From an uncultured Muribaculaceae bacterium (lineage in GTDB: Bacteria > Bacillota_I > Bacilli_A > RF39 > UBA660), in assembly GCA_964637865.1 (NCBI GenBank), contig CAZWXX010000001.1:1-36610 (forward strand): 36,610 nucleotides of DNA, in the 5' to 3' direction. The first letter of the stretch is position 1. Each line of letters starts with the position of its first letter. Of the stretch, positions 13,852-32,258 are shown piece after piece. Below the pieces are notes generated by a model. It was not told the DNA's origin. It saw nothing but the letters and a program-made list of their open reading frames with translations, and did not search any database. Made by a program: the position numbers and the translations under genes.

Positions 13852-13953
13852 TTATATAAGAAATATTTTATTTTGTGGCTTTAAAATCTATATAAAAAAG
13901 GAAAGGAATTTAATATAGGCTATTTTAGCTAGCATTAAATTGTGTGTGATGAT

Positions 13954-15228
13954 ATGAAAGTTGCTTTGAATGAGTATTTACCTAGATTATTAGATGAAAA
14001 ACTAGATGAGTATTTAAAAGTATTTGGTGCTTTATCAGTAGAAGGACCTAAATGGTGTGGAAAAACTTGGACATCTTCTAAACACGCGCAAAGTGCGGTT
14101 TATTTTGATGATGAAGAAACAAAAGAAAAGGCACTACTTGATTTAGAACTTGTATTAAATGGGGAAGCTCCCGAATTGATTGACGAATGGCATTTGGTTC
14201 CAAAAGTTTGGGATCGAGTAAGACGTAAATGTGATGAAGATTCCAAAAAAGGGAAATATATTTTAACTTGTTCTACTGAGCTTAATGATGATGCTAAAAA
14301 GGCTATTTTTCATTCTGGTGCTGGTAGAATTGGTAAAATTAAAATGCATACGATGTCTCTTTACGAATCACAAGATTCTACAGGAGAGGCTTCTTTAACG
14401 GCAATGCTTGAAGGACGTCAGAAAAACGTTAATGTTAAAATACCTGAACTTACAGAAATTGCTCGTCTTATTATTCGAGGTGGTTGGCCTAGTAATATTA
14501 AAGTGGACTCTAAAAACGTAGGTTTAATTCCTAAAAGTTATATAGAATCTATTCTTGATAAAGATATGAATGATGATAAAAAACGCGATAAAAATAAAAT
14601 GAGAATGTTACTTCGTTCCCTTGCAAGAAATGAAGGGGCGATTGCTAGTAACCAAACACTTATTAAAGATACTCAAGAATATGCAACGGAAGATGAATTT
14701 ATTGAAAGCCGAATTACGGTTTCTGATTATTTGGATGTTTTAGCTCGGCTTCATTTAATAGAAAATCAGGAGTCATATCGAGAAAATTATCGTTCTAAAG
14801 AAAGAATTGGCAAATCTCCTAAAAGACATTTAACTGATCCGTCACTTGCGTGTGCTGTACTTAATTTAACAGAAGAAAAACTACTAAAGGATTTGAACAC
14901 ATTTGGTTTTATGTTTGAATCTCTTGTTGAAAGAGATCTAAGGATTTATATGGAATATTTGGATGGTCATTTTTATCATTTTCGTGATAATGTAACTGGG
15001 CTTGAAGTGGATTCTATCTTAGAATTTGCTAATGGGGACTATGCTGCAGTAGAAATTAAACTTGGCTATAATAAAGTAGAGGAAGCGAAAAAAGAATTAT
15101 TAAAATTTTATGATAATATGGTAACGAAACCTAAATTTATGTGTATTATTACTGCTAATTTTTCATCGGTTGTTAAAGACTCTGAAACAGGAATTTATAT
15201 TCTTCCAATTACAGCGTTACGACCTTAG
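13954..15228 (+). CDS. AAA+ ATPase (COG1373 / AAA_14 plus DUF4143 type) with a C-terminal PD-(D/E)xK nuclease-like motif
   Basis: Walker A GPKWCGKT, Walker B ELIDEW, C-terminal GLEVDSILEF...AAVEIKLG (D...ExK). The start could be ATG 13954 or GTG 13942; neither has a good RBS. Confidence 0.8.
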   Translation: MKVALNEYLPRLLDEKLDEYLKVFGALSVEGPKWCGKTWTSSKHAQSAVYFDDEETKEKALLDLELVLNGEAPELIDEWHLVPKVWDRVRRKCDEDSKKGKYILTCSTELNDDAKKAIFHSGAGRIGKIKMHTMSLYESQDSTGEASLTAMLEGRQKNVNVKIPELTEIARLIIRGGWPSNIKVDSKNVGLIPKSYIESILDKDMNDDKKRDKNKMRMLLRSLARNEGAIASNQTLIKDTQEYATEDEFIESRITVSDYLDVLARLHLIENQESYRENYRSKERIGKSPKRHLTDPSLACAVLNLTEEKLLKDLNTFGFMFESLVERDLRIYMEYLDGHFYHFRDNVTGLEVDSILEFANGDYAAVEIKLGYNKVEEAKKELLKFYDNMVTKPKFMCIITANFSSVVKDSETGIYILPITALRP

Positions 15229-21774: not shown

Positions 21775-22695
21775 ATGAAAGGTATTATATTAGCTGGTGG
21801 AAAGGGTACAAGGCTTTATCCAATGACAAAAGCAGTATCCAAACAGTTACTTCCTTTATATGATAAACCAATGATTTATTATCCACTTTCCATTTTGATG
21901 CTTGCTGGTATTAAAGAAGTGTTAATTATTTCGACACCTCATGATTTGGATCAATATAAAAAACTACTTGGTGATGGTAGTGATATTGGTATGACTTTTG
22001 TTTACAAAGAACAAAAAGAGCCAAATGGTTTGGCGGAAGCATTTATTATTGGGGAAGACTTTATTGGAAATGATAGTGTATGTTTGATTTTAGGAGATAA
22101 TGTTTTTTATGGATCTACTTTACAAGAAAAATTGAAAGTAGCTTCTAATCTTACAGAAGGAGGTATTATTTTTGGTAGTTTAGTAGACGATCCTACTGCC
22201 TTTGGTGTTGTAAAATTTGATGATGATTTTAATGCTTTATCTATTGAAGAAAAACCAGAAAATCCACAATCTAAATGGGCAGTACCAGGACTTTATTTTT
22301 ATGACAATGATGTTATTGAAATTGCTAAAGGTGTAAAGCCATCTGCTAGAGGTGAAGTAGAGATTACTTCCATTAATAATGAATATTTACGTCGTAAGAA
22401 ATTAAAAGTTATTACTTTAGGTAGGGGAGTAGCGTGGTTAGATACTGGTACTCCTAAGGGAATGAGTCAAGCAAGTAGATTCGTCGAAATTATTCAAGAA
22501 CGGCAAGGACTTTATATTTCTTGTATCGAAGAAATTGCTTATTATCAAGGATTTATTTCTAAAGATCAATTAAGAAAATTAGGCGAAAATTTGAAAAAAA
22601 CTGATTACGGTCAATATATATTAGGAATTGCGAATAGCAAAGAGGAGGAAAATTATGAAAATATTAGTAACTGGTGGGGCAGGATTTATAGGTAG
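21775..22695 (+). CDS. rmlA: Glucose-1-phosphate thymidylyltransferase
   Basis: MKGIILAGGKGTRLYPMTKAVSKQLLPLYDKPMIYYPLS is the canonical RmlA N-terminus. RBS GTAGGAGGA. The 3' end overlaps rmlB by 41 nt. Confidence 0.95.
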   Translation: MKGIILAGGKGTRLYPMTKAVSKQLLPLYDKPMIYYPLSILMLAGIKEVLIISTPHDLDQYKKLLGDGSDIGMTFVYKEQKEPNGLAEAFIIGEDFIGNDSVCLILGDNVFYGSTLQEKLKVASNLTEGGIIFGSLVDDPTAFGVVKFDDDFNALSIEEKPENPQSKWAVPGLYFYDNDVIEIAKGVKPSARGEVEITSINNEYLRRKKLKVITLGRGVAWLDTGTPKGMSQASRFVEIIQERQGLYISCIEEIAYYQGFISKDQLRKLGENLKKTDYGQYILGIANSKEEENYENISNWWGRIYR

Positions 22696-23665
22696 TAACT
22701 TTCTACATTATATGGTAGATAAGTATCCTAATTATCAATTTGTTTGTTTAGATGCTTTAACTTATGCGGGAAATTATAATAACATTAAAGAATTAGAAGA
22801 ATGTTCTAATTATAAATTTGTAAAAGGGGATATTACAGATACTTCTTTTGTTGATCAATTATTTCTTGATGAGAAATTTGATTGGGTTGTAAATTTTGCA
22901 GCGGAGAGTCATGTAGATAATTCTATTAAAAATCCTGGTGTGTTTTTAACCACTAATATTTTAGGAACGCAAGTACTAATGGATGCTTCTCGTAAGTATG
23001 GTATTAAACGTTATCATCAAGTATCTACTGATGAGGTTTATGGCGATTTGCCACTTGATAGACCTGATTTGAAGTTTACTGAGGAAACACCAATTCACAC
23101 ATCTAGTCCATATTCATCTAGTAAAGCAGGAGCGGATTTACTTGTTGGTGCTTATTATAGAACTTATGGTCTTCCTATTACAATTTCACGTTGTTCTAAC
23201 AATTATGGTGCTTATCAATTCCCAGAAAAATTGATTCCTGTTGTCATTAGTAAAGCGATGAATGATGAAAAGATTCCTGTTTATGGAAAGGGAGAAAATG
23301 TTAGAGATTGGATTCATGTTCATGATCATAATGTTGGTGTTGATTTGATTTTGCATAATGGTCGTGTTGGTGAAGTTTATAATTTAGGCGGACATTCTGA
23401 AAAGACTAATTTAGAAGTAGTTAAAACGATTTTAGATACACTTGGAAAAAGCGAGGATTTAATTGAATTTGTCGCAGATCGACCTGGTCATGATTTGCGT
23501 TATGCAATTGATTCTACAAAGGCAGAAAAAGAATTAGGTTGGGAAAGAACTTTTAATTTTGAGGATGGAATGAAAGAGACGATCAAATGGTATGTAAATA
23601 ATCAGAAGTGGATTGAAGATATAAAAAACGGAAGCTATAAGGAGGCATACATACATGATAAATAA
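22655..23665 (+). CDS. rmlB: dTDP-glucose 4,6-dehydratase
   Basis: MKILVTGGAGFIGSNF (NAD Rossmann motif), catalytic YSSSK, HVDNS and RPGHDLRYAID. RBS AAAGAGGAGGA precedes ATG 22655. Confidence 0.95.
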   Translation: MKILVTGGAGFIGSNFLHYMVDKYPNYQFVCLDALTYAGNYNNIKELEECSNYKFVKGDITDTSFVDQLFLDEKFDWVVNFAAESHVDNSIKNPGVFLTTNILGTQVLMDASRKYGIKRYHQVSTDEVYGDLPLDRPDLKFTEETPIHTSSPYSSSKAGADLLVGAYYRTYGLPITISRCSNNYGAYQFPEKLIPVVISKAMNDEKIPVYGKGENVRDWIHVHDHNVGVDLILHNGRVGEVYNLGGHSEKTNLEVVKTILDTLGKSEDLIEFVADRPGHDLRYAIDSTKAEKELGWERTFNFEDGMKETIKWYVNNQKWIEDIKNGSYKEAYIHDK

Positions 23666-25355
23666 ATTTAAAAAATATATTAGTAATCATAAATTCTATT
23701 TAGGAGTTATGATTTTCTTTACATTATGTTTGTCTATTATTGTTTCGCAAGTTGTACTGTATGCTGATGATTTTTCATTGCATGCAAAAGCATTAAAATA
23801 TGATATTAATATTGTATTACATGAGTTTTCTTATATATACTCCCATTGGGGTGGGGGACCTACTCCAGGATTTGCAATTATTGTCTTAATGTTAGGGTTA
23901 ACTTTTTGGAAAATTATGAATATTATTATGATTTCATCTAGTGTTCATATGTTTGTAAATATGGTTATTCCTAAGAATAAAAGAAATGATAAAAATCGAT
24001 CATTGGTTGCATTTATTGTTTGGTCGTTTATCTTTTTAATGAATATTGGAATATCTAGGGAAACTATGTTTTGGTTTGATGGTTCTATGGCCTATGTTTT
24101 AACTACTTTTCTTTCTATCAGTTATATATATTGTTGTTATAAATTTATTTTAGAAGGAAAAAAAGTGCTTAATTGGCATTATGTTGCAATGTGTGTATTA
24201 GGATTTTTTGCTGGCTGGAATGGTCCTCAAGCAGGTGCAATTACGGTTTTAATTGGTTTTCTATTTGTTTTATGGCAGAAATTTATAAAGAAAGAAAAAG
24301 TTAATAAACTTATTCTTATTAGTAATTTTTTTCTTTTAGCGGGATTTATTATTTTATATATTGCGCCGGGTAATGCTATTCGTGCTGCTACTTTTAAAGA
24401 GTATAGTGCATTAGGATTTTTGGATAAAATTATTTATAGATTAGATGTTGTGGTTGATTTAGTAACAAATTGTACTGCTCATAGTCATTTTATGTTACCT
24501 ACTTATTTTTATATGTTTGCTATTTTATTAGTTGGAGTTTCTTGTGCGATTAAAAATAAAATTGCTAAAAGGGACAAAAAACTATATATGCTTTCCATTA
24601 TTATTAGTATTGCTTATATATTTTTATATGGTTTATATCTATATGGTGGACAAAATCATATGATTTATAGTTTTTTACATGAGATTTTTAATTATACGAT
24701 TGAAGGAAAAAATGGTGTTTTTGATATTCTTATTTTGTATTTCAATTATGCATTTTTTATTTCATTTCTTTTATCTTTGCTATATTTGTCATGGCAAGTT
24801 TCTAAAAATAGAAATCAAATTATGCTTTTTATAGCTTTTATAGGTGCTATCGGAACACAGGTTGCGATGTTAATGGCGCCTTATTCACCACCACGTTCTA
24901 TTTATATTACTATTATATTTTTTGTTTTGGCAATTGCTATTTTAGTATATGAATTACGAGATAATAAAGAAGTACTTGCAATTTGTATGATTAGTGGTTT
25001 ATGTTTTTACCAGATAGAATATGCTTTATGGTTGATTATTATATTTATTCTTCTTCATTATCTTCCACGTAAAGTAAATTACTATTATTTAGTATTCATT
25101 ATGATTTTAGTACCTGTAATTTCTACTATTATGATTACTTTTAAAGGCTATCGTATGTCTAGACGAGATAATATGTTTAATTTACAACAAATTGAAAAGT
25201 TTAAAGATAAGGGACAAAAAGGTACACTCGTGTTTTATAAATTACGTGATGAAAACTTTGCTTTTACACCACTTTATTCTGATGCTCAATGGATTCGAGA
25301 TGATGTTATAAAATATTTTAATTTAAAGAATAATGTTAAAATTAAAGTGAAATAA
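23655..25355 (+). CDS. Large polytopic membrane protein, candidate GT-C-fold glycosyltransferase (DUF6056-like)
   Basis: 566 aa with at least 12 predicted TM helices. Acidic YADDF motif lies immediately after TM1, the position of catalytic Asp residues in GT-C enzymes. ~70-aa hydrophilic C-terminus. RBS AAGGAGG; 11-nt overlap with rmlB. Confidence 0.5.
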   Translation: MINKFKKYISNHKFYLGVMIFFTLCLSIIVSQVVLYADDFSLHAKALKYDINIVLHEFSYIYSHWGGGPTPGFAIIVLMLGLTFWKIMNIIMISSSVHMFVNMVIPKNKRNDKNRSLVAFIVWSFIFLMNIGISRETMFWFDGSMAYVLTTFLSISYIYCCYKFILEGKKVLNWHYVAMCVLGFFAGWNGPQAGAITVLIGFLFVLWQKFIKKEKVNKLILISNFFLLAGFIILYIAPGNAIRAATFKEYSALGFLDKIIYRLDVVVDLVTNCTAHSHFMLPTYFYMFAILLVGVSCAIKNKIAKRDKKLYMLSIIISIAYIFLYGLYLYGGQNHMIYSFLHEIFNYTIEGKNGVFDILILYFNYAFFISFLLSLLYLSWQVSKNRNQIMLFIAFIGAIGTQVAMLMAPYSPPRSIYITIIFFVLAIAILVYELRDNKEVLAICMISGLCFYQIEYALWLIIIFILLHYLPRKVNYYYLVFIMILVPVISTIMITFKGYRMSRRDNMFNLQQIEKFKDKGQKGTLVFYKLRDENFAFTPLYSDAQWIRDDVIKYFNLKNNVKIKVK

Positions 25356-26169: not shown

Positions 26170-26640
26170 ATGATAAAAGTGATGTTTATTTCTTCAACTG
26201 GAGGACATTTGTCGGAGTTATTGCAGTTAAATTCTTTGTTTTCAAAGTATGATTATCAAATTGTAACAGAAAAAACTAAAAGTACTAAAAATTTAACTAA
26301 AAAGTATTCAGGTCATATAAATTATCTTATGTTTGGAACAAAAGATCATCTTTTTACTTATCCATTTAGACTTTTCTATAATTGTCTGAAAAGTTTTTAC
26401 TTTTATTTGAAATATCAACCTGATGTTATTATTACTACTGGGGCACATACTGCTGGTCCTATGTGTTGTTTAGGAAAGATATTTGGTAGTAAAATTATTT
26501 ATATTGAATCCTTTGCTAATATAAATACAAAAACGTTGACAGGAAGAATTATCTATCATTTTGCTGATTTATTTGTTGTTCAATGGAAAGGAATGCTTGA
26601 ATTATATCCTGATGCTATTTATGGGGGAAAGATTTTCTAG
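26170..26640 (+). CDS. Alg14-like / PssD/Cps14F-like glycosyltransferase accessory subunit
   Basis: 156 aa. MFISSTGGHLSELLQL and ITTGAHTAGPMC motifs typical of the N-terminal half of a split MurG/GT28-like enzyme. Confidence 0.8.
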   Translation: MIKVMFISSTGGHLSELLQLNSLFSKYDYQIVTEKTKSTKNLTKKYSGHINYLMFGTKDHLFTYPFRLFYNCLKSFYFYLKYQPDVIITTGAHTAGPMCCLGKIFGSKIIYIESFANINTKTLTGRIIYHFADLFVVQWKGMLELYPDAIYGGKIF

Positions 26641-26648
26641 GAGGAATT

Positions 26649-27539
26649 ATGATATTAGTTACATTAGGAACACAAGATAAAGATTTTTCTAGATTGTTGA
26701 GTGCAATAGAAAGAGAAATTAATAGGGGGAGTATTCAACAAAAGGTAATTGTACAAGCAGGGTGTACACGATACAAGTCTAATGCTATGGAAGTATTTGA
26801 TTTAATTTCTTCTGATGAATTAGATCGTTTAATGCGAGAAGCGGATATTGTAATTACTCATGGTGGTGTTGGTTCTATTATTACAGCATTAAAATATCAT
26901 AAAAAAGTTATTGCAGCAGCACGATTAAAAAAATATGGGGAACATACTAATGATCATCAAACACAAATTGTTAAGGAGTTTGCTAAACAAGGATATTTAT
27001 TAGAATTGCGTGATTTTAATAGTTTAGGGAAATTATTAAAAAAAATAGAAAAATTTTCTCCTAAATCTTATCACTCAGATAATGATAAAATGATTCATTT
27101 GGTGGATGATACTATACAAAAGTGGAGTGTAAATGGCATTTTTTCTAGAAGTCAGAAATTGCGTGAATTATTTTTGTATCTGTTTTTTGGTGTTTTTACT
27201 ACTGTTATTAATATTTTGACATACTATATTTTTGCAAGGCTATTTTCTGTTTATTATCAACTAAGTAATATAATTGCTTGGATTCTATCAGTTTTATTTG
27301 CTTTTATCACTAATAAATTATTTGTATTTCAAAGTAAGAAAGTATCAGTTGTTGATAACTTAAAGGAAGTTTTTTCTTTCTTTATCTTTCGGATTTTGTC
27401 TCTTCTTTTTGATATGTTCTTTATGTATATAATGGTTTCTTTTTTAAGTATAGATGATTTAGTTTCAAAAATTATTGTTAATGTTTTAGTTATTATTATA
27501 AATTATTTGATTAGTAAAATTCTTGTTTTTAAAAGGTAG
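26649..27539 (+). CDS. Fusion protein: Alg13-like (Glyco_tran_28_C, PssE/Cps14G-like) catalytic subunit plus a C-terminal GtrA-like 4-TM domain
   Basis: N-terminal ~160 aa: MILVTLGTQDKDFSRLL, ADIVITHGGVGSI, GEHTNDHQTQIV. C-terminal ~125 aa: four TM helices with GtrA-like LFLYLFFGVFTTVINILTYYIF...NKLFVF...ISKILVFK. Confidence 0.75.
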   Translation: MILVTLGTQDKDFSRLLSAIEREINRGSIQQKVIVQAGCTRYKSNAMEVFDLISSDELDRLMREADIVITHGGVGSIITALKYHKKVIAAARLKKYGEHTNDHQTQIVKEFAKQGYLLELRDFNSLGKLLKKIEKFSPKSYHSDNDKMIHLVDDTIQKWSVNGIFSRSQKLRELFLYLFFGVFTTVINILTYYIFARLFSVYYQLSNIIAWILSVLFAFITNKLFVFQSKKVSVVDNLKEVFSFFIFRILSLLFDMFFMYIMVSFLSIDDLVSKIIVNVLVIIINYLISKILVFKR

Positions 27540-27547
27540 GTGTTCTT

Positions 27548-28495
27548 ATGAAAAAAGATAAAATATCTGTAGTAATTCCTTGCTATAATGAAGAAGAGGC
27601 TATTCCTATTTTTTATGATTCAATTAATAAAATTTCTAAAAAGATGGATCAAGTTCAATTTGAATTTTTATTTATTAATGATGGAAGCTTTGATAGTACT
27701 CTGGAAAAGATCAAAGAATTAGCTACGAAGGATAAAAGGGTACGATATTTATCATTTTCTAGGAACTTTGGAAAAGAGGCTGGTATGTATGCAGGATTTG
27801 AAAATGTGACTGGTAATTATGTTGCGATTATGGATGTAGATATGCAAGATCCACCGGAAATGCTTTTAACGATGTATAGAGAAATTCAACAGGGAGATTA
27901 TGATTGCATTGGGTTACGTACTAATTCTCATGAAGGATATTCTTTTTTACGAAAAATATGTACAAAATGTTGGTATAAATTGATTGGAACTATCTCTTCT
28001 ATTCAACAGGTTCCAGGTGCTCGTGATTTTAGGTTAATGAAACGTCAAATGGTAGATTCTATCATTGCTATGAAAGAATATAACCGTTATTCAAAAGGGA
28101 TTTTTGGTTTTGTTGGTTTTTCTACTAAATGGATTGTTTATGATGCACCTGCTCGAGTAGTTGGAAAGACTACTTGGAACTTTTGGAAACTATTTAAATA
28201 TGCATTAGAGGGAATTCTTGCTTTTTCAACTACGCCTCTTGTATTATCGGCTTTTATTGGTTTATTTTTTTGTTTTATTTCATTTATTGTAATTTTTGTA
28301 ATTATTGTTAAGACTCTTATTTGGGGGGATCCTGTTGGAGGGTGGCCTTCTCTTGCGTGTATTATTATGTTTGTTAGTGGCATTCAGTTGTTTTTTTTCG
28401 GGATTATGGGAATGTATTTGTCAAAAGCATATTTAGAAGTAAAAAAACGTCCAATTTATATTGTTAAAGAAACAGAAAAGGATTTAAAAAAGTAG
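27548..28495 (+). CDS. Polyprenyl-phosphate glycosyltransferase, GT2, GtrB/CsbB-like
   Basis: ISVVIPCYNEEEAI, INDGSFDST, SRNFGKEAGMYAGF, DVDMQDPPE, two C-terminal TMs. Confidence 0.87.
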   Translation: MKKDKISVVIPCYNEEEAIPIFYDSINKISKKMDQVQFEFLFINDGSFDSTLEKIKELATKDKRVRYLSFSRNFGKEAGMYAGFENVTGNYVAIMDVDMQDPPEMLLTMYREIQQGDYDCIGLRTNSHEGYSFLRKICTKCWYKLIGTISSIQQVPGARDFRLMKRQMVDSIIAMKEYNRYSKGIFGFVGFSTKWIVYDAPARVVGKTTWNFWKLFKYALEGILAFSTTPLVLSAFIGLFFCFISFIVIFVIIVKTLIWGDPVGGWPSLACIIMFVSGIQLFFFGIMGMYLSKAYLEVKKRPIYIVKETEKDLKK

Positions 28496-28521: not shown

Positions 28522-29472
28522 ATGAAAAAGTTATTCCTTGCTATTTTTGTTAGTTTATACTTATTTCTTTTTTTATTTCTTTTTTTGTTTTATAGTCCTT
28601 TTTCTATTTTTAGGGATTATTTTATCACAACAGTTATGACTACTAAATCTCATCAATATTTTGCTAAAATATTTTATCATGATAGAGATATTTTAAAAGT
28701 AATATCTTCTCATAAAATATTTGAGGTAAAAGATATTACTGATTTGAACAAAATTGAAATAAATAGTAAACGTAAAAATAAACTCTATCAAAAAAAGAAA
28801 ATTTATGGTTATGGTTATACAGGTTATTTAATTGAAGTTTATAATCCTAGTAGAGTGCATATTGTTACTTCTTCGAAATTAGGGAATGAAGGTGAAACTG
28901 TATTGGATATTTCTAGGAGAGAAAATGCAAAAATTGTTATGAATGCTGGTGGATTTTTTGATCCTAATTGGTCTAGTAATGGTGCTATTCCTCATGGAAC
29001 TGTAATCAGAAATGGAAAAATTATTAGTCGGTATGGTATTTCTAATGTTGGTGGAGGATTTGTTGGACTTACTAAAGAGGGAAAATTATTTTTAGGTAAT
29101 GTTACAGAGGAGGAGGTTTTGAGAAAAGGAGTCGTTGATGCCATCCAATTTGGTCCTTTTTTGATTATTAATGGAAAAACTAGTACAGTGATTGGAAATG
29201 GTGGTTGGGGAATTGCTCCTCGAAGTGTTATTGGACAAAGAAAAGACGGTACAATTTTGTTGTTAGTGATTAATGGGCGGATTCCTTCTAGTATTGGTGC
29301 TACTATGCAAGATCTTATTGATATTATGAGAAGAGAAAAGGCTTATAATGCAGTTAATATGGATGGTGGTTCTTCGTCTTCTTTAGTTGTTCACCAAAAA
29401 GTGATTAATTATCCAGTAGGAGGAGGGAAAAGTGGATTACGAAAATTACCTGTTTTTTGGATTGTAAAGTAA
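28522..29472 (+). CDS. Membrane-anchored phosphodiester glycosidase family protein (NAGPA / DUF2233-like)
   Basis: N-terminal TM (LFLAIFVSLYLFLFLFLFLFY) then NAGGFFDP, FGPFLIINGK, APRSVIGQRKDGTILLLVINGR and NMDGGSSSSL, the NAGPA-domain pattern. Confidence 0.78.
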   Translation: MKKLFLAIFVSLYLFLFLFLFLFYSPFSIFRDYFITTVMTTKSHQYFAKIFYHDRDILKVISSHKIFEVKDITDLNKIEINSKRKNKLYQKKKIYGYGYTGYLIEVYNPSRVHIVTSSKLGNEGETVLDISRRENAKIVMNAGGFFDPNWSSNGAIPHGTVIRNGKIISRYGISNVGGGFVGLTKEGKLFLGNVTEEEVLRKGVVDAIQFGPFLIINGKTSTVIGNGGWGIAPRSVIGQRKDGTILLLVINGRIPSSIGATMQDLIDIMRREKAYNAVNMDGGSSSSLVVHQKVINYPVGGGKSGLRKLPVFWIVK

Positions 29473-29559: not shown

Positions 29560-30654
29560 ATGAGAAAGAAAAAATTATTATTTTTAGGATATGATTTAAG
29601 AATTGGGGGAATAGAAAATGCCCTTATTGCTTTACTACATAATATTAATTATCAAAAGTATGATGTAACATTAATATTAGAAAAAGTTAATCCAAATGAA
29701 ATAAAGAGAGTTCCAAGTCAAGTTAGAATACAAGAATATAAAGTTAGTAATCATTCTATTTTGTTTTTTCGAAAGATTTCTAATCTTTTCAGAAGAATTC
29801 GTTTTTTTATAAAAAATTATCATCGTTATCAATTCTCATGTAGTTATGCTACTTATTCTATTCCAGGTAGTGTACTTGCTCGAATTGCATCATCTAATAA
29901 TAGTCTTTATGTTCATAGTAATTATGCTCAGTTATATAATAGAACAGAGTTTGTAAACTTTTTTAATCATTTGAAAATAGATAAGTTTCGGACTATTTTC
30001 TTTGTATCTAATGAATCAAAAGCTGATTTTTTAAAGTATTTTCCTTTCTTGGCTACTAAGACTGTTGTATGCAATAATTTTATTGATGGACACTTAATTT
30101 TGGAAAAATCATTACAAGAGATTAATATTGAGAGAAAGTCACAATTTGTTCTTACTTTTGTTGGACGTTTAGATGATACTTCTAAACAATTAACGAAGTT
30201 GTTTTCTGTTATAGAGTATTTAAAGTCTCATCATGTTTCTGTAGAATGTTGGATTGTAGGTGATGGACCTGATAGAGAAAAATATGTAAAAATTGTTAGA
30301 ACTATGAAATTAGAAAAATCAATTTTATTTTTTGGAAGGCAAAATAATCCATATCCTTATATGAGAAAAAGTGATTTTATTATTCTTACTTCTAAGTATG
30401 AGGGATTTCCAGTTGTTTATTTGGAAAGTATTATTTTAAAGAAAAAAATTATTTCTACTATTGATGTTAGTGATGAATTTATATCTATTCCAAATCGATT
30501 TGGTTATATTATTTCGCAAGATGAAGAAAAAATGAAAAAAGAAGTTTTTGATATTTTAGAAGATGACTCTTTAGAATATGAAAATATTGATTTTTCTATT
30601 TTGAATAAGCAAAAGCAGGAGATATTAGAAGCTATATTTGACCAATTGTGTTAA
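29560..30654 (+). CDS. Family 4 (GT-B) glycosyltransferase
   Basis: LRIGGIENAL N-terminus and C-terminal EX7E region SKYEGFPVVYLESI. Confidence 0.85.
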   Translation: MRKKKLLFLGYDLRIGGIENALIALLHNINYQKYDVTLILEKVNPNEIKRVPSQVRIQEYKVSNHSILFFRKISNLFRRIRFFIKNYHRYQFSCSYATYSIPGSVLARIASSNNSLYVHSNYAQLYNRTEFVNFFNHLKIDKFRTIFFVSNESKADFLKYFPFLATKTVVCNNFIDGHLILEKSLQEINIERKSQFVLTFVGRLDDTSKQLTKLFSVIEYLKSHHVSVECWIVGDGPDREKYVKIVRTMKLEKSILFFGRQNNPYPYMRKSDFIILTSKYEGFPVVYLESIILKKKIISTIDVSDEFISIPNRFGYIISQDEEKMKKEVFDILEDDSLEYENIDFSILNKQKQEILEAIFDQLC

Positions 30655-30710
30655 TTTGGTTGGAGATTAAAACTTTTTTTGATATAATGTTTTTGATAGA
30701 AGGAGGATTT

Positions 30711-31511
30711 ATGATAAAAAATGTATTACAAAATTTTAAAAGATATTCATTTTTAATGCAACAGATGATTATGCGCGACTTTAAAGTTAAATATAAACGT
30801 TCTGTACTTGGGGTACTATGGAGTTTACTATATCCGTTACTTATGATGATAGTAATGGCTATTGTATTTTCGCATATGTTTCGTTTTTCGATGGAAGGTG
30901 TGAATTATTTAGTTTATTTGATGACAGGACTTGTTGTATGGAATTATTTTTCAGAGGCTTCTAATTTAGGAATGACATCTATTGTATCTAATTTTGCTCT
31001 GATGACAAAGGTTTATATTCCAAAATATATTTTTCCTTTAGCAAAATGTTTATTTGTAGGAATTAACTTTTTGTTGTCTCTTATCCCACTATTGCTTATT
31101 ATTTTATTTACTGGAAGTGCTGATACTAAATGTGTAATTAATATATACTATTTACTTCTTCCATATGCTTTTATTTGTCTTTTATTCTTTACAGTTGGAA
31201 TCAGTTTTATTACTTCTACTATTTCCGTGTTTTTAAGAGATATGTTTTATATTTATGGAATTATCTTAACTATTTGGCAGTATTTTACTCCTATTTTCTA
31301 TGATATAAAAATGCTTCCTCAAAATTTACAAGTTTTATTTCAATTAAATCCAATATATCAATTTTTGACATTTATTAGGACGATTATTATTTATAATCAA
31401 TTACCATCTTTACAAAACATATTGATGTGTGCTTTGTATGCAATTGGAACCTTTATCATTGGATGTATTGTTTTTAGAAAAAATCAAGATAAATTTATTT
31501 ATTATGTATAG
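30711..31511 (+). CDS. ABC-2 type polysaccharide/teichoic-acid export permease (TagG/Wzm-like)
   Basis: RDFKVKYKRSVLGVLWSLLYPLLMM signature of ABC-2 glycopolymer exporters, six TM helices. RBS AGAAGGAGGA precedes ATG 30711; the track start at 30648 overlaps the upstream gene. Confidence 0.88.
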   Translation: MIKNVLQNFKRYSFLMQQMIMRDFKVKYKRSVLGVLWSLLYPLLMMIVMAIVFSHMFRFSMEGVNYLVYLMTGLVVWNYFSEASNLGMTSIVSNFALMTKVYIPKYIFPLAKCLFVGINFLLSLIPLLLIILFTGSADTKCVINIYYLLLPYAFICLLFFTVGISFITSTISVFLRDMFYIYGIILTIWQYFTPIFYDIKMLPQNLQVLFQLNPIYQFLTFIRTIIIYNQLPSLQNILMCALYAIGTFIIGCIVFRKNQDKFIYYV

Positions 31512-31520
31512 GAGGAGTAT

Positions 31521-32258
31521 ATGATTAAGATTAAAAATGTTTCGATGAAGTTTAATTTAGGTATTGAGAAGAATAATTCGTTTAAAGAAACTTTCATTCG
31601 TTTTTTTCAATTTAAAAAAAAGGATAAGCCTGAGGATTTTTGGGCACTTAATGATCTTACTTTTAGTGTGAAAAAAGGAGAAGTTATTGGTTTGGTTGGA
31701 AGCAATGGGGCTGGAAAAAGTACATTATTAAAAGTAGTTAGTGGTGTTATGAAACCTACAAAAGGAAAAGTGGAAGTTCATGGAGTGATATCTCCTATGA
31801 TTGAATTGGGAGCAGGATTTGATGCTGATTTAACTGCACGGGAAAATATTTATTTAAATGGAGCAGTACTTGGCTATTCAAAAAGTTTTTTGGATTCTAA
31901 GTTTGATGAGATTGTTGAATTCTCAGAATTACAAGATTTTTTAGATGTACCGATTAAGAATTTCTCATCTGGTATGACTGCAAAACTTGCTTTTTCTATT
32001 GCAACTATTGTAGATCCTGAGATTTTGATTGTGGATGAAATTTTGTCTGTAGGGGATATTAAATTTCAAGAAAAAAGTCGTCAGAAGATGATGGAATTAA
32101 TAAAAGGTGGAACTACAGTTCTTTATGTTTCTCATTCATTGCCATCTATTCGTGAATTATGTACTAAAGTTATTTGGATAGAACATGGTAAAATGGTAAA
32201 AATGGGAGATGTTAATGAAGTTTGCGATGAATATTATAAAGCGCAAATGGGGTCGTAA
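31521..32258 (+). CDS. ABC transporter ATP-binding protein (TagH/Wzt-like, short form without C-terminal carbohydrate-binding domain)
   Basis: Walker A GSNGAGKST, signature FSSGMTAKLAF, Walker B ILIVDE, H-loop VSHS. Confidence 0.92.
   Translation: MIKIKNVSMKFNLGIEKNNSFKETFIRFFQFKKKDKPEDFWALNDLTFSVKKGEVIGLVGSNGAGKSTLLKVVSGVMKPTKGKVEVHGVISPMIELGAGFDADLTARENIYLNGAVLGYSKSFLDSKFDEIVEFSELQDFLDVPIKNFSSGMTAKLAFSIATIVDPEILIVDEILSVGDIKFQEKSRQKMMELIKGGTTVLYVSHSLPSIRELCTKVIWIEHGKMVKMGDVNEVCDEYYKAQMGS

Follow-up and report, generated by a model that had tools for sequence, protein, structure and literature searches.

This study focused on a block of three genes in a 36,610-nt stretch of contig CAZWXX010000001.1 (the window, meaning the whole of that stretch), which belongs to a 1.32-Mb genome bin, 90.7% complete, of a low-GC Bacilli lineage. 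The middle gene of the block (26649-27539, + strand) specifies a protein of 296 amino acids (aa) in which PssE/Cps14G, the Alg13-like, donor-side half of a split, MurG-like glycosyltransferase, is fused to a complete GtrA/GtcA-type membrane domain. The fusion is real and is conserved in related genera, and the architecture is apparently undescribed, even though it is built from well-known families. We give roughly an even chance to a dual role for this protein, as a working GtrA for the CsbB-like glycosyltransferase of family 2 (GT2) encoded beside it, and as a membrane tether for the PssD/PssE enzyme.

A preliminary description of this block had proposed a split MurG-like glycosyltransferase, with its Alg13-like half joined to a GtrA-like domain and a GtrB/CsbB-like GT2 downstream, and each part of that proposal was borne out by profile matches (NF041549, NF041548, PF04101, PF04138 and PF00535). 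The three open reading frames (ORFs), 26170-26640, 26649-27539 and 27548-28495, all lie on the + strand. The first encodes PssD/Cps14F, the Alg14-like acceptor-side half of the split GT-B enzyme, a protein of 156 aa that scored 176.2 bits against NCBIfam NF041549 (equivalog cut-off 110), its residues 5-155 covering the whole of the model (positions 1-151 of 151), and 67 bits against Pfam Alg14. Its N-terminus is MIKVMFISSTGGH, and no hydrophobic segment passed a Kyte-Doolittle scan of the 156 aa. The preliminary description had pointed out that this PssD has no N-terminal membrane helix; the absence is true but not unusual, since the 151-position NCBIfam model itself aligns from residue 5. Lack of the helix is therefore normal for bacterial PssD, and it follows that the GtrA domain is not substituting for an anchor that the family normally has.

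The fusion gene begins 8 nt after pssD, so that the genes for the two enzyme halves are adjacent. Residues 1-155 of its product (26649..27113, + strand) make up the PssE/Cps14G donor-side Rossmann half, residues 2-155 scoring 129.6 bits against NF041548 (equivalog cut-off 120; model positions 1-145 of 146) and residues 1-143 matching Glyco_tran_28_C (PF04101); the motifs ITHGGVGSI and GEHTNDHQ are both present. A predicted helix at residues 145-161 (27081..27131, + strand) is the last of the PssE part. The GtrA/GtcA-type domain occupies residues 177-294 of 296 (27177..27530, + strand), and the profile check of this region, which had been described as a four-helix, GtrA-like domain, gave a full-length match to PF04138 (GtrA_DPMS_TM; positions 2-117 of 117) at 78.4 bits (78-81 across searches), against a cut-off of 26.1. 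Four hydrophobic segments were found by the Kyte-Doolittle scan, and four helices were also predicted by AlphaFold2 (AF2), as expected of GtrA. While PssE/Cps14G is ordinarily a soluble, single-domain protein of about 150-165 aa, the fusion thus has 296 aa and a membrane domain of 140 aa. The third gene (27548..28495, + strand) encodes a CsbB/GtrB-type GT2 of 315 aa (PF00535, 102 bits) that aligned over its full length with PgfS (283.6 bits, short of the equivalog cut-off, 500) and with ArnC (125 bits). It has C-terminal membrane segments, at residues 219-287, as in the GtrB/CsbB-type proteins found beside GtrA, and is presumed to be an undecaprenyl-phosphate sugar synthase, the usual partner of GtrA.

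A search of 5.8 billion proteins returned 1887 matches to the fusion protein, the best 120 of which all carry both PF04101 and PF04138. These 120 relatives are 54-64% identical to it and 288-303 aa long, and come from NCBI, ENA, JGI and Logan assemblies; the single source name given among them, for an entry from the bin of a Bacilli bacterium, is "hypothetical protein". Within the genus, an uninterrupted, full-length fusion is carried by four further genomes, and in a survey of the bacterial family (150 genera, one genome each) a full-length match free of stops was found in 12 genera, that is, this genus and 11 more, two of which (G046 and G050; genomes, loci and contigs are referred to by G, L and C numbers) have the decayed tails described below. 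Clustering at 50% identity gave about 20-25 clusters of PssE with a membrane tail (240-310 aa). As the fusion is conserved in independent assemblies, it is not an artefact of assembly or sequencing. It is also fairly common, being present in 12 of the 150 genera, although no characterisation of it was found: a literature search for GtrA together with Alg13/Alg14, Cps14G, PssE or Glyco_tran_28_C produced no paper on a fusion of PssE or an Alg13-like protein to GtrA, and the lipocone/VanZ paper mentions neither GtrA nor Alg13. The commonest state across the family survey is a stand-alone PssE of about 160 aa that has no tail.

Judged by its residues, the fused GtrA part looks fully functional. 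Rismondo et al. reported eight residues conserved in more than 99% of 1000 GtcA homologues and seven more that are highly conserved, and R95 and N132 of Listeria GtcA were found to be essential (PMC7389260). All 15 conserved residues are present in the fusion protein at a constant offset of 153 from the GtcA numbering (Y177, G181, T184, T185, N188, A218, N222, V226, F227, F244, R248, K274, N285, S289 and F294), the two essential ones being R248 and N285. None of the 15 varies among 35 aligned fused proteins, and 14 related fused proteins from other genomes retain 14-15 of them. Many signature residues are polar and lie within predicted membrane helices (N188, N222, R248, D255 and N285 among them), and the conservation of polar residues within the membrane is more than a plain anchor would need.

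The fused domain is the sole match to PF04138 in this 1.32-Mb genome, and the same holds for 11 of the other 14 genomes in which the fusion is intact. An orthologue of the CsbB-like GT2 was detected in 14 of these 15 genomes (this one counted), directly downstream of the fusion in 10 and elsewhere in four. Of the 25 related loci, 11 have a CsbB-like GT2, 57-79% identical to that of the window, directly after the PssE fusion (10 with an intact GtrA domain, one with a decayed one). The genome studied holds exactly two GT2s of the polyprenyl-phosphate type, both within the window, and they match up one to one with their neighbours: the ArnC-like GT2 is beside a pair of small ArnE/F-like proteins, and the CsbB-like GT2 is beside the fused GtrA.

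Ten related PssE proteins (in G002, G042-G044, G046, G050, G064, G088, G097 and G106) have a tail that still aligns with GtrA and retains just 1-6 of the 15 residues. R248 or N285 has been lost from every one of them, and all ten, from at least nine genera, keep 3-4 hydrophobic segments that are often more hydrophobic than those of the intact domain. A separate, intact gtrA is present in eight of these ten genomes, adjoining a GT2 in G042 and G044 (the CsbB-like orthologue) and in G097 (a more distant GT2 paralogue), while the remaining two, G043 and G046, have no CsbB-like GT2. Hence the signature decays where the GtrA task is carried out elsewhere or is not needed, and the membrane helices stay, which indicates that a plain membrane tether is also retained. 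The preliminary description had offered two alternatives, a physical link to the translocation component of a lipid-linked sugar pathway, or recruitment of the GtrA-like domain as a membrane anchor. Both find support, the former in a GtrA part that is intact, the only one in the genome and beside the GT2, the latter in the decayed tails that keep the tether.

Related genomes also preserve the unfused arrangement. In G023, of a sister genus, the order is pssD, pssE (158 aa), gtrA (145 aa), the two latter products adding up to the length of the fusion proteins, and the junction reads ...ATA TAG ATG GAG..., with the TAG stop codon of pssE directly before the in-frame ATG of gtrA; a single base change in this stop codon would yield a protein of the observed length. 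The pssE and gtrA genes also abut or overlap in G024. The 296-aa protein probably arose through loss of the stop codon between neighbouring pssE and gtrA genes. In a tree of PssE domains (46 rows), 19 of the 43 inner branches were open and the backbone was unresolved, so that the number of fusion events could not be counted, and a single origin is neither shown nor excluded. What was solid in this tree was the clade of the genus, and the clustering of the fused state, which required seven changes compared with 13.4 when the labels were shuffled.

The AF2 single-chain model had a mean pLDDT (predicted local distance difference test) of 84.6 and a pTM (predicted template modelling score) of 0.54, and shows a Rossmann domain (1-134), the helix at 145-161, and then helices at 164-198, 203-226, 234-265 and 270-293, with essentially no linker. 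The helix at 145-161 coincides with the end of stand-alone PssE (relatives of 158-165 aa, aligned to residues 1-157) and, by analogy with the C-terminal helix of Alg13, may be the GT-B cross-over helix that contacts PssD. Both ends of the GtrA domain are predicted to be cytoplasmic, with the N-terminus inside and lysine-rich inner loops, and as PssE is itself cytoplasmic, the topology is compatible with fusion. When a profile of the 35 fused proteins was compared with the sequences in the PDB, the N-terminal half matched yeast Alg13 (2ks6; E 2.3e-5), and no match was found for the membrane half. By Foldseek, the N-terminal half resembles the C-terminal domains of GT-B enzymes, and DPMS of Pyrococcus furiosus (PDB 5MLZ, 9EP0) was among the best matches (E 7.4e-5).

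PssD/PssE-type enzymes, by family, act on polyprenyl-diphosphate-linked sugars. If the fusion protein has the dual role proposed, its PssE part and PssD would add a sugar to an undecaprenyl-diphosphate-linked acceptor, probably early in the ABC-transporter-dependent glycopolymer pathway encoded around the locus. The C-terminal domain would still be a working GtrA/GtcA, needed to bring the undecaprenyl-phosphate sugar made by the 27548-28495 GT2 across to the membrane's outer face, by a GtrA step that is usually described as flipping and whose mechanism is still debated. On the outer face, an unlinked GT-C transferase (YfhO on contig C73, or a DUF6056 protein) would transfer this sugar onto a glycopolymer of the wall or membrane, while the same domain would hold PssD/PssE at the membrane.

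Several observations weigh against this dual role. Three of the genomes with an intact fusion hold a second GtrA, and one (G120, 93% complete) has an intact fused domain and no detectable CsbB-like GT2. The low pTM means that AF2 predicts no fixed arrangement of the two domains. The role of GtrA proteins is itself unsettled, as work cited in PMC12992685 has argued that Rv3789 is not a flippase but serves as a recruiting or anchor protein. The compared genomes, moreover, are interrelated and mostly metagenome bins, so that the counts given above are descriptive and not independent trials, and absences may reflect incompleteness. Finally, the fusion may not be under selection and may simply be tolerated. 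If so, it would be a neutral joining of operon neighbours, in which GtrA serves the downstream GT2 only and became attached to PssE by chance when a compact genome lost a stop codon, with no benefit to PssD/PssE, and was tolerated because both of its termini are cytoplasmic. In favour of this reading, the unfused genes are one stop codon away from fusion and the genomes are small (about 1-1.4 Mb), their genes abutting or overlapping; the predominance of tail-less PssE in the family and the lack of a predicted interface between the domains are also in keeping with it. It does not readily account for the ten decayed tails, which have been kept as 3-4 hydrophobic helices even though eight of the genomes have a separate GtrA, nor for the recurrent fusion of PssE to unrelated membrane modules. 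We regard it as unlikely on balance, though it deserves real consideration.

Two further readings give the membrane domain to PssD/PssE. It may have been recruited only as a tether, or as a docking module for polyprenyl lipids, with no part in handling the GT2 product. Fusions, intact or decayed, that have no adjacent GT2 (G005, G041/L001, G092, G078, G120, G046, G107 and L002-L004) point in this direction, as do the intact domain of G120, the adjacent pssE and gtrA genes of G023, where no CsbB-like GT2 was detected at E<=1e-20, and the recruiting role proposed for Rv3789. A mere anchor would not need the 15 of 15 invariant signature residues, however, many of them polar and within the membrane, and those are precisely the residues lost from tails in genomes that have a separate GtrA; the present genome, furthermore, has a CsbB-like GT2 and a YfhO and no other GtrA. 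This makes a purely anchoring function improbable. The last possibility is that the GtrA domain works on what the attached PssD/PssE uses or makes, binding, presenting or translocating an undecaprenyl-diphosphate-linked substrate or product. It would explain why pssE and gtrA are adjacent or fused in several genera in the absence of a nearby GT2, and it has a parallel in P. furiosus DPMS (PfDPMS), one of the best fold matches, in which a catalytic domain sits on a GtrA-like domain and which has been suggested to flip its own product (PMC12992685). Characterised GtrA proteins, on the other hand, are tied to single sugars linked by a monophosphate and not to diphosphate-linked glycans, an ABC exporter for the polymer is encoded in the locus itself, the intact signature tracks the presence of the CsbB-like GT2 and so favours the canonical partner, and most PssD/PssE pairs work without any GtrA. 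We consider such coupling slightly less probable still; if true, it would extend GtrA from monophosphate-linked single sugars to diphosphate-linked glycans and supply bacteria with an equivalent of archaeal DPMS, for which self-flipping has been proposed.

The two halves of the enzyme are closest to PssD/PssE of Rhizobium leguminosarum and Cps14F/Cps14G of Streptococcus pneumoniae type 14, both scoring above the NCBIfam equivalog cut-offs for these proteins, and the donor half resembles yeast Alg13. As in those systems and in eukaryotic Alg14/Alg13, acceptor-side and donor-side halves of a split MurG-like GT-B enzyme are encoded by adjacent genes. The donor half differs from characterised PssE/Cps14G and from soluble Alg13 in bearing a C-terminal GtrA membrane domain of 140 aa. 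In eukaryotes, an N-terminal membrane anchor on Alg14 recruits soluble Alg13, whereas here PssD has no such helix and it is the Alg13-like half that bears the membrane domain.

The membrane domain, for its part, shares with the GtrA-GtrB-GtrC systems of Shigella phages and the CsbB-GtcA-YfhO systems of Bacillus subtilis and Listeria a full PF04138 match, four helices, the 15 GtcA residues, an adjacent GtrB/CsbB-like GT2 and a YfhO in the genome. In those three-component systems GtrA is a stand-alone protein of 120-150 aa, while in the present protein it forms the C-terminal part of a cytoplasmic half-glycosyltransferase that belongs to another pathway step, and the presumed GT-C partner is unlinked. 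The type-III DPMS of P. furiosus (5MLZ, 9EP0) likewise carries a catalytic glycosyltransferase domain covalently on a GtrA-like four-helix membrane domain, but its catalytic domain is a GT2 of the GT-A fold that makes the polyprenyl-phosphate sugar itself, and not, as here, one donor-binding half of a GT-B enzyme dependent on a second subunit. Crystal data for PfDPMS suggest that it flips its own product, and its polar-pocket residues are absent from ordinary GtrA proteins (PMC12992685).

GtrA does not invariably occur as a separate protein. Apart from archaeal type-III DPMS, a glycosyltransferase fusion of solved structure (PMC12992685), this bacterial family itself commonly has YfhO::GtrA and GT2::GtrA fusions. 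Open frames of some 960-1017 aa that have a C-terminal GtrA domain are frequent there (for example G006:C18:44391-44771, G166:C11, G091:C6 and G049:C60), and the database representative P0234 has the architecture YfhO::GtrA. These resemble the present protein in having a C-terminal GtrA on an enzyme of lipid-linked glycosylation, but they join GtrA to its own pathway partners, whereas the partner here is an enzyme from outside the three-component system. The novelty lies in this fusion partner, as GtrA fusions as such are not rare.

PssE and PssD have also been joined to other modules. Metagenomic relatives include PssE::VanZ::Alg14 (487 aa), PssE::DUF6056 (663 aa), PssE fused to a PMT_2 GT-C domain (641 aa), and PssE fused to a glycosyltransferase of family 4 (GT4; 517 aa), these four carrying the identifiers P0160, P0202, P0153 and P0150. 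In sister genera, PssD is joined with an O-antigen-ligase/Wzy-like membrane protein (612 aa; L096:5312-7150 of G022) or with a GT4 (533 aa; L095:6409-8010 of G021). The variety of modules attached to PssE and PssD indicates that the bacterial enzyme has repeatedly gained a membrane or partner attachment by fusion. In PssE::VanZ::Alg14, both halves of the glycosyltransferase have been rejoined, in reverse order, around a VanZ membrane domain.

The window is a single long glycopolymer locus with all genes on the same strand. It includes several GT2 and GT4 enzymes, a Wzy/ligase-like protein, an Arn-like module (aminotransferase, GNAT, ArnC-like GT2, two small EamA-like proteins, RmlA, RmlB and DUF6056) and an SGNH protein, followed by PssD, PssE::GtrA, the GT2, a NAGPA phosphodiester glycosidase, a GT4, an ABC-2 exporter and a pair of large glycosyltransferases with several domains each. 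The genome as a whole has one PssD/PssE pair, one GtrA domain, one YfhO (on C73) and a second DUF6056 (on C12), as well as two PF00953 proteins and one Bac_transf initiating transferase outside the window. Within the Arn-like module, the TTG start listed for the RmlB ORF (22628-23665) overlaps the end of rmlA by 68 nt, and translation probably starts instead at the ATG preceding MKILVTGGAGFIG, a few codons further downstream. An AAA_14/DUF4143 ATPase gene (13942-15228 of the window) interrupts the otherwise tightly packed glycan genes.

Among related loci, pssD directly precedes pssE in nearly all, the exceptions being L088 and L099, where another ORF lies between them, and L115, for which no PssD ORF was listed. 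Downstream of these genes, with or without the GtrA domain, most related loci have NAGPA, in the window a membrane-anchored phosphodiester glycosidase (28522..29472, + strand; PF09992, 144 bits) with an N-terminal membrane segment. It is the most constant downstream neighbour (L090, L093, L103, L106-L111, L115, L116, L124), sometimes present in two copies, and in many relatives a protein of about 190 aa with no Pfam match is encoded between the GT2 and NAGPA. NAGPA is followed in the window by a GT4 (29560..30654, + strand; PF00534, PF13692); in relatives a GT4 lies directly upstream of pssD, in the order GT4-PssD-PssE (L001-L004, L106-L124). Next in the window comes the ABC-2 permease and ATPase, a TagGH-like glycopolymer exporter (30648..32258, + strand; PF01061, PF00005), orthologues of which flank the module in G001, G003 and G004; PssD/PssE probably act in the pathway of this adjacent exporter. 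Two other loci had unusual features. In L111 of G046, the PssE fusion is followed by a gene (L111:6982-7575) that carries a prepilin-type N-terminal methylation motif (PF07963). In L009, from a Muribaculaceae bin labelled as Bacteroidota (contig CAYJJI010000018.1), PssD and PssE are 58% and 47% identical to those of the window and have a GT4 on either side, reflecting either horizontal transfer or a mis-binned contig.

No GT-C transferase was found within the block, as the preliminary description had said, but the polytopic DUF6056 membrane protein that it put forward as the nearest candidate (23655..25355, + strand; PF19528, 96.5 bits) is not supported as the only one, since the genome also encodes the unlinked YfhO on C73 and the second DUF6056 on C12. 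The DUF6056 at 23655 more likely belongs to the upstream Arn-like module. The possibility that a YfhO gene cut by a contig end hides a second GtrA was considered and rejected: of the five other genomes of the genus, four have a YfhO, which is 843-864 aa long and lacks a GtrA tail, and the genome studied has no further match to PF04138.

Whether GtrA proteins are flippases, lipid-binding recruiters or both is debated, and the proteins described here form a natural series that separates these roles: separate pssE and gtrA genes, an intact fusion that is the sole GtrA of its genome, and decayed fusions that keep their helices once a second GtrA is present. The series gives constructs with which residues that handle the lipid-linked sugar could be told apart from those that merely anchor. 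There is also a practical value in better annotation, as many such metagenomic proteins are unnamed in the databases searched. More generally, bacterial Alg13/Alg14-type enzymes, which do not have the membrane anchor of eukaryotic Alg14, gain membrane attachment repeatedly, by fusing to a membrane protein encoded next to them.

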